Shown here piece after piece: positions 5,418 through 47,076 of a DNA stretch of 64,000 nucleotides. This DNA comes from Nitrosopumilus sp. (GTDB lineage Archaea > Thermoproteota > Nitrososphaeria > Nitrososphaerales > Nitrosopumilaceae): NCBI GenBank assembly GCA_963667665.2, contig OY763927.2:1504001-1568000 (forward strand), written 5' to 3'. How positions within the stretch are numbered: position 1 is the first letter of the stretch; each line of letters begins with the position of its first letter. The notes beneath the pieces were generated by a model, which saw nothing but the letters and a program-made list of their open reading frames with translations, ran no database searches and was not told where the DNA came from. The translations under genes and the position numbers were made by a program.

Positions 5418-6059
5418 TTAGAGGAATTTAGCAGTAGTTGTTTCTTGAGTTTCTGTTGGAACTGAAGGGAACATTTGACCTGCAGAAGTCTCTGCAACAG
5501 CAGCAGCTTCTTTGAGAATACTTTCAGATTCTGCGTTAGTAGTTTCATCAACTCCAAATGCTGTATCTCCTGAGAAACTTTCTGTCATAAAGCCTCCAAG
5601 CATTTCTGCCATTTGACCAATTTCTTGCTCAGCCCCTGGCATTATTTTTCCAAGAGATGATTTTAGATTCTTCATCAAACCCATTGTTGGCATAATTGCT
5701 ATTACAGTATCTCCAAGATCACTGCAGGTAGTTAAGCGTAATTCAATTTGTTCTAATGCTATTCTAGCACTACTCAAAATTTTGGTAACTTTTCTTACCT
5801 CGGCTAACTCATTACCAAGAACTTTACTGGTTTGAGTATCGTGTTTTTGTGTTGCCTTTACAATTCTTTGAAATAATTTTGCATCACGTTCTTGTAAGTT
5901 TGTTAGCATTGAATCTAATTTTGTAATTTGTAATTGTAATTTTTTAATTCCATCCTGAACTCTTGGTTTTAGGGGACCTTTAGGCTTGAGTGTATCATTA
6001 ATTTTTTCAGTAATACTGGGTTGTGACTGTTTTGACCATTTACTAGACAAATTAGGCAT
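5418..6059 (-). CDS. Snf7/ESCRT-III (CdvB-family) protein
   Basis: Snf7 helical pattern LGNELAEVRKVTKILSSARIALEQIELRLTT and AESESILKEA. Confidence 0.9.
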   Translation of the reverse strand: MPNLSSKWSKQSQPSITEKINDTLKPKGPLKPRVQDGIKKLQLQITKLDSMLTNLQERDAKLFQRIVKATQKHDTQTSKVLGNELAEVRKVTKILSSARIALEQIELRLTTCSDLGDTVIAIMPTMGLMKNLKSSLGKIMPGAEQEIGQMAEMLGGFMTESFSGDTAFGVDETTNAESESILKEAAAVAETSAGQMFPSVPTETQETTTAKFL

Positions 6060-6230: not shown

Positions 6231-6674
6231 ATGAATAAAAAAATTATAATAATTCCCATTCTTATAATTACAATTTTAGTAGTTTTTTCATCAAATTCAT
6301 CTAAGGAAAAAAATATGATATTTCATGTAACTCTTGCAGATCCTGAACTGTACAATAATGGAGTTTATACTAATGCATTTACTATAGACAAAGGAGAATA
6401 TTATTTTAGATTTGTCCCAAATGGAAGTAGTCCAGATACGTTATCAATAAAATTGGCTGGAGAAAAATTATTTAATTTTTCTGAAGATTTTCAGCTTGAA
6501 AGTACCTCACACCAAACTGGAGCATCTGAATACTTTACATGGGAATATAATGGAAAGAAAACCATTTTGATTTCAGAGATGCAAACAGTTTTCATAATTA
6601 TTAATCCAAATGGAAATGTTATGGGTTCAGTATCTGTAGATATTTTAGAAAATAAAGAAGGCGTACACCCCTAA
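6231..6674 (+). CDS. N-terminally anchored hypothetical protein
   Basis: Hydrophobic N-terminus, beta-rich domain. Confidence 0.7.
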   Translation: MNKKIIIIPILIITILVVFSSNSSKEKNMIFHVTLADPELYNNGVYTNAFTIDKGEYYFRFVPNGSSPDTLSIKLAGEKLFNFSEDFQLESTSHQTGASEYFTWEYNGKKTILISEMQTVFIIINPNGNVMGSVSVDILENKEGVHP

Positions 6675-6790
6675 ACTGCAGAACTTTGAGAGATTTCCTC
6701 TCGTGGTCAGAACGTTAACGTCTGATTGCCTTTTTCGTTCTGCGGGGCTACGCAGTTTTAGTCGATAGGAATTATATCCTTCGGCATCAT
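6655..6790 (-). ncRNA. candidate structured ncRNA (family not recognised)
   Basis: GC-rich island with nested helices and crossing pairings; minus-strand TTAAATA box at 6810-6816; oligo-T run at the 3' end. Confidence 0.6.
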
Positions 6791-6884
6791 ATTATATAGT
6801 AACTTTAACTATTTAACATTTCATATGATAAATTATAAGATTTTATGATATTTTATAAAATATTTTGTGCCTATTCTGAAATAG

Positions 6885-7664
6885 TTGATCTATAAATTAC
6901 GAATTTTTGTGAAAAAAATATTGAGATTATCAGGAAAAATTGCAATAGTAACTGGTGGAAGTAGAGGAATAGGATTTGCTACTGCAAAAATTTTATCAGA
7001 AAATGGAGCAACAGTGGTAATTACAGCAAAGGATAAGGATAGATTAGAAAAATCTGTATTAGAAGTTTCTAATGCAGTTGGTATTGCAGCTGATATTAGA
7101 AAAAAAAATGAAGTAAAAAGTGTTGTAAATAAAACAATTGAGAAATTTGGAAAATTAGATATTCTTGTAAATAATGCTGGAATATTTCCAAAGATCAAAC
7201 CATTACATGAAATTGATGAGGATGAGTGGAATGAAATTATAGATGTAAATCTTACAGGACAATTTAGATTTACTAAGGAAGCAATTCCTCATTTGAAAAA
7301 ATCAGGTGGTTCAATAATTAATATTTCATCTGATGCAGGATTAAAGGCATATCAAGGATTTAATGCTGATGCATATTCTGCTTCAAAAGCAGCACTAATT
7401 TTGCTAACAAAATGTTGGGCACTTGAATATGCAAAAAATAAGATTAGAGTTAATTGTATTTGTCCTGGAGTAGTAGATACAGATATGACAAAGCCATTTA
7501 TGAAAACACAGAAAGATAAAGAATTCATGGATAGTGAGCATCCAATAGGTAGAATTGGTCAACCGGAAGAAGTAGCAAAAGCAGTAATGTATTTTGCATC
7601 AGATGATGCATCTTGGACTACTGGTGCAATACTTGCAGTAGATGGAGGAGAATCAATTAAATGA
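6885..7664 (+). CDS. short-chain dehydrogenase/reductase
   Basis: TGGSRGIG, NNAG, YSASK; true start probably near 6921. Confidence 0.92.
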   Translation: MIYKLRIFVKKILRLSGKIAIVTGGSRGIGFATAKILSENGATVVITAKDKDRLEKSVLEVSNAVGIAADIRKKNEVKSVVNKTIEKFGKLDILVNNAGIFPKIKPLHEIDEDEWNEIIDVNLTGQFRFTKEAIPHLKKSGGSIINISSDAGLKAYQGFNADAYSASKAALILLTKCWALEYAKNKIRVNCICPGVVDTDMTKPFMKTQKDKEFMDSEHPIGRIGQPEEVAKAVMYFASDDASWTTGAILAVDGGESIK

Positions 7665-47002: not shown

Positions 47003-47076
47003 GGGATCGTAGTCTAGCTTGGTATGATACTAGTCTGGGGGACTAGTGATCGCAGGTTCAAATCCTGCCGGTCCCA
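47003..47076 (+). tRNA. tRNA-Pro(GGG)
   Basis: Acceptor stem GGGATCG/CGGTCCC, anticodon arm CTAGT-CTGGGGG-ACTAG, T-loop GGTTCAAATCC; no encoded CCA, no intron. Confidence 0.95.

Follow-up and report, generated by a model that had tools for sequence, protein, structure and literature searches.

Y, vault and 6S RNAs are abundant panhandle RNAs that act as protein-bound particles. The ammonia-oxidising archaea of the family Nitrosopumilaceae are among the most abundant cells of the sea and drive marine nitrification. In the Marine Group II Euryarchaeota, an orphan RNA of 229 nucleotides (nt), Thalassoarchaea ncRNA 1 (Tan1), has been found in metatranscriptomes (PMC5069720). Here we describe an element located at 6655-6790 of a 64,000-nt stretch of Nitrosopumilus sp. 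DNA (contig OY763927.2, positions 1,504,001 to 1,568,000; hereafter the window, all coordinates being its own). An earlier note, made from the sequence alone, had taken the element for an unrecognised, possibly pseudoknotted RNA, either a stand-alone small RNA (sRNA) or a ribozyme-like one. Our full-text search found no description of structured RNAs beyond rRNA, tRNA, RNase P and signal recognition particle (SRP) RNA in ammonia-oxidising archaea of this family. The evidence presented below makes it very likely that the element is a stand-alone gene for a structured noncoding RNA (ncRNA) of ~130 nt belonging to a family that is not in Rfam 15. The family is a new one of a known general kind, the archaeal structured small RNAs, with an unusual leaderless open reading frame of a few codons (mini-ORF) at its 5' end.

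Comparison with catalogued RNAs

When the whole window was searched with the 4227 models of Rfam 15 at their gathering thresholds, the only match was a tRNA at 47003-47076. A permissive scan of 6560-6920 returned three matches, to two snoRNAs and one Listeria sRNA, with scores of 14.4-17.9 bits and E-values of 2.6-3.6, where the thresholds are 36-90. All three fall well short, and the strong Rfam hit that would have removed the novelty is absent. The failure of the earlier note to recognise in it a tRNA, 5S rRNA, SRP RNA or RNase P RNA was likewise borne out by Rfam, by ARAGORN and by a search of the genome. ARAGORN reported only tRNA-Pro at 47003 and no tmRNA in the window, and no T-loop motif was seen on reading the sequence of the element. 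The genome's own 5S rRNA (78.2 bits), RNase P RNA (189.2 bits) and SRP RNA (99.9 bits) score above cut-off elsewhere, as does 16S rRNA, which rules out all four identities. No minus-strand reading frame of at least 40 amino acids (aa) crosses the element.

The guide RNAs of archaea do not fit either. An archaeal C/D box sRNA carries box C (RUGAUGA) near its 5' end and box D (CUGA) near its 3' end, contains a K-turn and is ~50-70 nt long. At its start the window copy reads UGAUGCC, but many copies have UAAUG, the length is ~130 nt, no CUGA is conserved near the 3' end and the internal CUGA, in hairpin P4, is not conserved. Archaeal H/ACA sRNAs have an ACA box on the 3' side of a hairpin with a pseudouridylation pocket and a K-turn or K-loop; here what follows the first closing helix (P1) is a C and then a tail rich in U or A, in which no ACA occurs, and the sole internal loop is a one-sided bulge of 5-6 nt. 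A cis-regulatory leader or riboswitch was also rejected, the next downstream gene being convergent in the window and at most copies, and P1 being followed by an oligo-U tract.

Fold and covariation

For the 141 bases at 6655-6795, the folding energy is -42.5 kcal/mol (z -4.03) on the minus strand and -49.1 kcal/mol (z -5.26) on the plus strand. Since none of 200 dinucleotide-preserving shuffles was as good for either strand, the structure is real and beyond chance. All the helices and hairpins that had been placed on the plus strand in the earlier note are present as given when the sequence is read directly (Table 1). Written as minus-strand RNA, they form a 5' hairpin (H1) followed by a clamp of 17 base pairs in two stacked helices (P1 and P2), which joins both ends of the body around a three-way junction with two hairpins, P4 and P3.

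Homologous copies were used to evaluate this fold. In a plain MAFFT alignment of 48 same-genus copies, 94.5% of the 1667 cells hold standard pairs, compared with 35.5-46.9% after a shift of the 3' partners by one to three columns, and eight of the 35 pairs change on both sides. In an alignment of 100 copies from ~20 genera of the family, fitted to a covariance model and hence leaning towards structure, 94.4% of the 3447 cells pair (31.2-53.7% after such a shift) and 24 of the 35 pairs are compensatory, a number that was reached by none of 500 shuffles. The covariation that the earlier note proposed to look for in homologues is therefore there. Compensatory pairs are found in every helix: 7/7 in P4, 5/7 in H1, 6/9 in P1, 4/7 in P2 and 2/5 in P3; in the same alignment 98.1% of the cells are paired in P1 and again 98.1% in P2. 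Mutual information across the 100 copies recovered only the known helices and a split between paralogue types in H1.

The helices differ in what is conserved. H1 and P4 vary freely with compensation, and P2 and P3 show hardly any sequence change. All lengths from 12 to 23 nt occur in P4, and also 26 nt, the changes not being multiples of three. Of 164 distinct copies, 163 have a P3 of 15 nt. The loop of P3 is G-N-A-A-U throughout; 84 copies have G-C and 11 have A-U as its closing pair, and the pattern can also be written GAGAGG-N-AAUCUCUC. The single-stranded linker, the bulge and the junctions vary across the family, and this includes the junction between P2 and P4 (J2/4), which is conserved within the genus.

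We considered whether P3 mimics a Shine-Dalgarno sequence, as its 5' half and loop, GAGG-AA-AUC (in 6688-6702 of the window, minus strand; L129 at 2960-2971), resemble the complement of the 16S rRNA 3' end (GAUCACCUCCU). The likeness was judged a coincidence because there is no selection at the loop position where a U would be needed, and because one mismatch, A.C, never changes. Copies that have a U at that loop position match the complement of the 16S 3' end at eight of nine positions. Elsewhere in the genome, the P3 motif gave 15 matches with at most two mismatches, compared with 13 for a reversed control, and the sole look-alike with compensated pairs lies in coding sequence.

Two long-range pairings were examined. 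The pseudoknot or switch suggested in the earlier note, in which AAACU (6758..6754) would pair with AGUUU (6677..6673) across P1, does not covary. Only 58% of the cells of this crossing helix are paired among the 48 same-genus copies, so that it is not supported as a helix: its two junction-proximal pairs hold (35/48 and 41/48 cells), and its three distal pairs fail (9/32, 6/21 and 24/48). The closest relative, 91% identical, has AACAA where the window has AGUUU. The other pairing, between AAAAGG of J2/4 and CCUUUU in the tail just after P1, is a candidate only. Within the genus 91.7% of its cells pair, in columns that hardly vary; some apparently compensatory changes (A-U to U-A) occur in the family as a whole, and a permutation test gave 0/5000 but was driven by one clade. 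Among 18 distinct copies with a CA tail, the junctions pair no better with their own tails than with those of other tail classes (2.39 versus 2.46 pairs).

Strand and gene anatomy

Three features, the promoter, the terminator and the wobble pairs, agree in assigning the RNA to the minus strand. The TATA box and the oligo-T terminator that had been seen on this strand are both conserved in relatives. The TATA box, TTAAATA, fits the archaeal consensus and lies 23 to 29 bases before an AUG at the predicted 5' end; among the 100 genome copies placed on the covariance model, it occupies exactly -29..-23 in 87 of the 95 that could be scored, and it stands at the same distance in 58 of the 66 metagenome copies that have the AUG. 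Conservation extends past the end of the element as first delimited, up to an invariant TATTTAA at 6810-6816 (plus strand) in 50 aligned copies. A run of at least four T follows P1 within 20 nt in 78 of 95 copies, and in the window the tract occupies 6659..6648. The output of a bacterial-type promoter and terminator scan was disregarded, the host being an archaeon.

Wobble pairs tell the strands apart. Over the 100 copies, the core helices P1, P2 and P3 contain 66 G.U and five A.C cells when written as minus-strand RNA, a ratio that is reversed on the plus strand; P2 alone contributes 22 and two. The predicted transcript extends from ~6787 to 6658 of the minus strand, ~130 nt, its exact ends being deduced from sequence. 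It stands in a GC-rich island in AT-rich DNA, as had been observed, with a GC content of 0.46 (6650-6749) and 0.43 (6700-6799) compared with 0.16-0.34 in the adjacent 100-base windows. The copy in the window has H1, the P1-P2 clamp, P4, the invariant P3, the TATA box at -29..-23 and the U-tract, and scores, over the full model, 152 bits with a first covariance model (R1) and 145 bits with a second (R2).

Table 1. Features of the RNA gene and its surroundings in the window. Minus-strand positions are written from high to low in the 5' to 3' direction.
Feature	Position	Strand	Sequence or remark
TATA box	6816..6810	minus	TTAAATA; -29..-23, counted from the A of the conserved AUG
AUG	6787..6785	minus	predicted +1, leaderless 5' end; start deduced from TATA distance only
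Mini-ORF	6787..6758	minus	AUG, eight sense codons (MPKDIIPID in all) and UAA
H1, 5' hairpin	6784..6762	minus	stems CCGAAGG / CUAUCGA, AU-rich loop; inside mini-ORF
Stop codon	6760..6758	minus	UAA
Linker	to 6754	minus	
P1, 5' strand	6753..6744	minus	GCGUAGCCCC; pairs with 6671..6661
P2, 5' strand	6743..6737	minus	GCAGAAC; pairs with 6684..6678
Junction J2/4	6736..6726	minus	GAAAAAGGCAA; plus-strand reading CCTTTTTC, a T5 run
P4 hairpin	6725..6707	minus	UCAGACG-UUAA-CGUUCUGA; variable
Junction J4/3	6706..6703	minus	CCAC
P3 hairpin	6702..6688	minus	GAGAG-GAAAU-CUCUC; near-invariant; family consensus GRGAGG-N-AAUCUCYC
Junction J3/2	6687..6685	minus	AAA
P2, 3' strand	6684..6678	minus	GUUCUGC
Bulge between P2 and P1	6677..6672	minus	AGUUUA; one-sided (3' side); sequence variable
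P1, 3' strand	6671..6661	minus	GGGGUGUACGC
3' tail	6660..6648	minus	C-UUCUUUAUUUUC; oligo-U terminator region
Helix, read from sequence	6678-6684 / 6737-6743	plus	GCAGAAC / GTTCTGC
Helix, read from sequence	6661-6671 / 6744-6753	plus	GCGTACACCCC / GGGGCTACGC
Hairpin, read from sequence	6688-6702	plus	GAGAG-ATTTC-CTCTC
Hairpin, read from sequence	6707-6725	plus	TCAGA..TCTGA
Terminal hairpin, read from sequence	6762-6784	plus	CGATAGGA..TCCTTCG
Crossing segments, read from sequence	6673-6677 and 6754-6758	plus	AAACT and AGTTT
orf147	6231..6674	plus	convergent; 147 aa; N-terminal hydrophobic signal anchor
Snf7-like (ESCRT-III) gene	5418-6059		beyond orf147, in many loci
Short-chain dehydrogenase gene	6885-7664	plus	divergent from the RNA promoter

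Distribution of the RNA

A BLAST search of the window's own genome with 6640-6800 returned only the query region. Among 36 genomes of the same genus, 35 gave a match at E 1.5e-10 or better, many of them two matches of 72-91% identity, and the remaining genome, which is 69% complete, gave a hit at chance level only. R1, built from the genus alignment, finds a single copy in the window's genome (6649-6796, minus strand) and full-length matches in 135 of 151 sampled family genomes (108 of the 115 of good quality), or in 132 of 148 when three unpublished genomes, all matched (G137, G152 and G153), are set aside. Twenty-five of the 27 genera are positive, with one to four matches per positive genome. 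R2, built from 30 copies of ~20 genera, matched 23/23 family genomes and 0/127 genomes of 19 other families of the order; R1 on the same draw matched 22/23 and 0/127. Homologues had been expected in Nitrosopumilaceae, which the family-wide distribution fits.

Two genera deserve separate mention. Genus g34 was missed by R1 and gave weak R2 matches (36.4 and 34.8 bits) in two of three genomes. Judged by its neighbourhood, the g34 match is a true orthologue, because the RNA lies just upstream of a convergent orf147 homologue (38% identity, E 1e-36), followed by a Snf7-like gene (51% identity, E 2e-81). Its P3 has an extra compensated pair, A-U to G-C (GGGAGG-C-AAUCUCCC). In genus g26, no match was found with R1 in four genomes (G064, G091, G115 and G134) or with R2 in two; these genomes are 0.8-0.9 Mb in size and 79-95% complete, and amoA is present in all three that were searched for it (G064, G091 and G115).

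In metagenomes, the pattern from P3 to P2 matched at least 118 contigs, and all 80 loci that were returned contain a model match; the same pattern found no match in viral contigs. Many matches in draft genomes lie at contig ends (G005:C107:1-102, G022:C41:1-105, G162:C112:3-149, G150:C35:1-137), as expected if two or three paralogues break short-read assemblies, and copy numbers there are therefore underestimates. In G194, of the GC-richer genus g39, two tandem copies lie on the same strand ~170 nt apart (L107, 898-1033 and 1201-1336), and one of them has a hairpin loop that is 3 nt shorter and a frame of eight codons.

Presence in RNA libraries

A search of sequencing runs with a 501-base query listed 23 runs, four of which (X1-X4) were examined in detail. 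X1, a metatranscriptome of study P1 that contains 0.23 of the query, gave one 194-nt contig (6581-6774) that is at least 99% alike. Two marine metatranscriptomes of study P2, X2 (0.14 of the query) and X4, hold 143 and 40 contigs, respectively, all within 6654-6772. RNA libraries thus hold a small share of the query; six runs hold 0.95-1.00 of it, with no library type recorded, and are probably DNA, as is probably X3. Summed word depth reaches 15353 in X2 and 2162 in X4, but it sums contigs of many strains and follows conservation, which makes it a poor measure of expression. In X2 and X4, no contig covers the flanking genes at 6450-6650 and 6790-6950, and cover of H1 is far below that of the core, a pattern from which we draw no conclusion about processing or expression. 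Sequencing adapter directly follows 6751 and 6761, and in one record adapter and nine T directly precede 6658. If these nine T represent an added poly(A) tail, this single record marks the 3' end of the minus-strand RNA as ...ACGCCUU.

A predicted leaderless frame at the 5' end

One feature was overlooked in the earlier note. The RNA starts with an AUG, an in-frame stop codon follows, and the frame is kept in ~97% of copies. Among 98 full-length genome copies, 96 have the ATG at the same model position; the frame has nine codons, the ATG included, in 94 of these and eight in two, and ends with TAA in 70, TAG in 24 and TGA in two. The same arrangement occurs in 66 of 70 distinct full-length metagenome copies (63 with nine codons and three with eight), two more have a displaced but intact frame, and in the remaining two UUG replaces AUG. 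The frame encloses H1; of 164 copies, 155 have an H1 of 23 nt and five one of 20 nt. The stop codon precedes P1 by 5-7 nt. A minor paralogue type (L033, L051, L161 and L193) has the whole fold, at 116-143 bits, and, instead of the 5' AUG, a UUG or GUG one codon downstream.

These observations raise an alternative to a structured RNA with an accessory frame, namely that translation itself is the function, through the peptide or through translating and terminating beside P1, with the 3' domain as a stabiliser or a ribosome-interacting module. The AUG, which stands 23 bases behind the TATA box at the predicted start of transcription, speaks for it, as do the retention of the frame, the use of all three stop codons, and the length of H1, whose usual change is by -3 nt (5/164), whereas P4 takes on lengths of every kind. 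A ribosome terminating so close to P1 would moreover have to open that helix. On the other side, paralogues and genera have different peptides (MPKDIIPID, MSLVIKSGD, MQKDAIPTA), encoded by nucleotides that covary as a hairpin, which argues against a coding role; the g34 orthologue keeps the fold with neither AUG nor stop; and conservation in the RNA is highest at P2-P3 and not in the frame. The pattern of stop codons is not significant, fewer than one UGG being expected at that position from the stop frequencies. We regard translation as the function as unlikely, though it is the alternative that fares best.

Much of the above also bears on ribosome loading as a part of our own account, against which stand the departures of g34 and of the drifting peptide, the four other copies with UUG or GUG in place of AUG, and a hairpin that begins at ~+4 and should hinder leaderless initiation. 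On sequence grounds, the mini-ORF frame is probably under selection, and its engagement by ribosomes is plausible.

Genomic context

No match to orf147 was found in Pfam or NCBIfam; the protein is conserved throughout the family, with identities as low as 35-41%. In the window the last five codons and the stop of its gene overlap the P1 3' strand and the bulge. Downstream of 51 of the 100 copies, and also in g34, a homologue of orf147 lies next to the RNA gene in convergent orientation, usually with its stop only a few bases from the 3' end of the model. Next to copies of a second paralogue type, a convergent gene encoding 333-363 aa lies at a distance of 30-100 bases; in the one locus scanned (L038) it carries the domains DUF1246 and DUF1297. 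Other neighbours encode an inositol monophosphatase and a small zinc-finger-like ORF, and none of the neighbours of RNA copies is an obvious RNA-binding protein.

Such an arrangement invites the idea of a base-pairing regulatory RNA, acting in trans through a short seed or in cis on the convergent orf147 message. The 3' end of the RNA abuts or overlaps the stop of the orf147 homologue in half of the copies, by 17 nt in the window, and the T5 run at 6731-6735 (plus strand) could end the orf147 message after ~60 nt that would be perfectly complementary to the 3' half of the RNA. Yet other paralogues lie in other contexts, as those next to the DUF1246/DUF1297 gene, and BLAST against the window's own genome found no complementary stretch longer than 19 nt with two mismatches. 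The best-conserved segments are helical, and the single strands that might serve as a seed, that is, linker, bulge and junctions, vary. A base-pairing role is therefore rather improbable; the linkage with orf147 is best read as old synteny, and cis-antisense action as a minor possibility. The T5 run is the complement of the junction sequence GAAAAAGG, an A-run that is conserved in the genus and not across the family.

Interpretation

The classification as an unrecognised stand-alone structured sRNA, one of the two offered in the earlier note, is supported by the negative Rfam and tRNA searches, by covariation, by the G.U asymmetry and by a promoter box at a fixed distance. Three further alternatives to it were weighed. 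The element could be a divergent member of a described class beyond the reach of the Rfam models, or an RNA already published. Ocean metatranscriptome surveys have reported many unnamed small RNAs, and Shi, Tyson and DeLong (Nature, 2009) reportedly described small-RNA groups that include some mapping to marine crenarchaeal DNA. On the other hand, nothing in Rfam 15 matches, and our full-text literature search found no description, although supplements of metatranscriptome surveys, that of 2009 included, may list the RNA as an unnamed group; the available parts of PMC5069720, PMC13414033, PMC2996960, PMC13475601, PMC3043068 and bioRxiv 10.1101/175141 do not mention it. We consider this alternative quite improbable.

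The ribozyme-like RNA that was the other offer fares worse. A three-way junction with a conserved core recalls many ribozymes and aptamers, but the ribozyme and riboswitch families of Rfam gave no match with the E-value limit raised to 10, the junction strands vary and no co-directional gene follows, so that a self-cleaving or ligand-sensing RNA is very improbable. Finally, a plus-strand element, that is, a 3' untranslated region, terminator or stability hairpin of orf147, would explain why that strand folds slightly better, why the element begins inside the last codons of orf147 and why the X1 contig spans both the end of this gene and most of the element, but the wobble pairs and the TATA box are on the minus side and there are paralogues with no orf147 beside them, which leaves it hardly any probability.

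The reading that we prefer combines the gene with a protein scaffold and with ribosome loading, and as a whole we would give it a probability of roughly 0.45. The RNA would act in trans, and P1 and the 5' hairpin, by shielding its ends, would make it long-lived; the invariant platform of P2 and P3 would be the site at which a protein or complex recognises and binds it. Recognition by protein appears likelier than pairing with targets because conservation is strongest in two helices of fixed sequence, P2 and P3, and not in single strands. Through the 5' AUG, with the seven or eight codons and the stop that follow, the RNA would probably also serve as a leaderless mini-message and load ribosomes; by translating as far as the foot of P1, these could then modulate the fold or the access of partners, and a terminating ribosome would have to open that foot. 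Taken on its own, the mechanistic part, a stable trans-acting RNA-protein particle or protein scaffold, is put forward tentatively as something that may hold, and protein partner, translation and any role are conjectured.

Beside the difficulties of the mini-ORF, several findings weigh against this account. The plus strand of the window copy folds more stably than the minus strand, a difference that we ascribe to G.U pairs in P4 that relatives do not keep. The G.U over A.C asymmetry is weak outside the core, with 94 versus 51 cells in H1, mostly from one doubtful outer pair, and 30 versus 20 in P4. The alignments that yielded the TATA, T-run and G.U counts share the leaning towards structure of the family alignment. 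The contigs establish presence in RNA libraries of two studies, from unstranded data with unreliable ends and possible DNA carry-over, and the X1 contig runs ~75 nt beyond the predicted terminator, to 6581. The g26 genomes searched suggest that the RNA is not essential and apparently can be lost.

A bolder version is that of a ribosome-engaging RNA, in which the leaderless nine-codon frame would recruit ribosomes, park them against the invariant domain and so couple the state of translation to the activity of an RNA-protein particle. This is speculative and we think it improbable; if true, the RNA would be a functional archaeal counterpart to tmRNA or 6S RNA, sensing or buffering the core gene-expression machinery in the most numerous archaea of the ocean.

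Comparison with known RNAs

The promoter, the fold and the 15-nt invariant hairpin are kept in 25 of the 27 genera sampled, which speaks for a role that is very probably central, or at least advantageous. As the RNA is small and clearly covarying and its covariance model is ready, it can be annotated at once in genomes and metatranscriptomes, where reads from it may, if unrecognised, be miscounted. Its leaderless in-frame mini-ORF also poses a testable question about archaeal ribosomes and the 5'-terminal AUGs of structured RNAs.

Among RNAs that combine structure with a short frame, tmRNA shares with the present family an end-paired structured domain and a short frame that ends in a stop. It differs in almost everything else: ARAGORN finds none here, there is neither a tRNA-like T arm nor a CCA end, and the frame lies at the extreme 5' end and starts with AUG, whereas that of tmRNA is internal and resumed. 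tmRNA is not known from archaea. The bacterial dual-function RNAs SgrS, RNAIII and SR1 are likewise structured RNAs with a short frame, but theirs encode conserved peptides of 26-43 residues behind a ribosome-binding site, whereas the frame here has 8-9 codons, is leaderless, encodes an unconserved peptide and is folded in a hairpin.

In general plan the RNA is closer to Y, vault and 6S RNAs, which are ~100-180 nt long, have a long bulged helix that pairs the ends and an internal multi-loop with specific elements, end in a U-rich 3' end, and are abundant and lineage-wide. There is no sequence or Rfam similarity to any of them, however, and none of them is known to start with a mini-ORF. The central bubble resembling an open promoter, the hallmark of 6S RNA, is absent here. 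The Ro/TROVE protein (PF05731) has no match in the window's genome, which is 99.97% complete, in a search whose controls were positive in Deinococcus and Bacteroides, and this sets the RNA apart from Y RNAs.

As a discovery, the nearest precedent is Tan1. Its report (PMC5069720) presents an abundant, unannotated, lineage-specific sRNA of planktonic archaea with a complex predicted fold and with no Rfam family or known function, a portrait that resembles the one drawn here. The two are set apart by description, Tan1 being an RNA of 229 nt from Euryarchaeota and the present one an RNA of ~130 nt that is restricted to one family of ammonia oxidisers.

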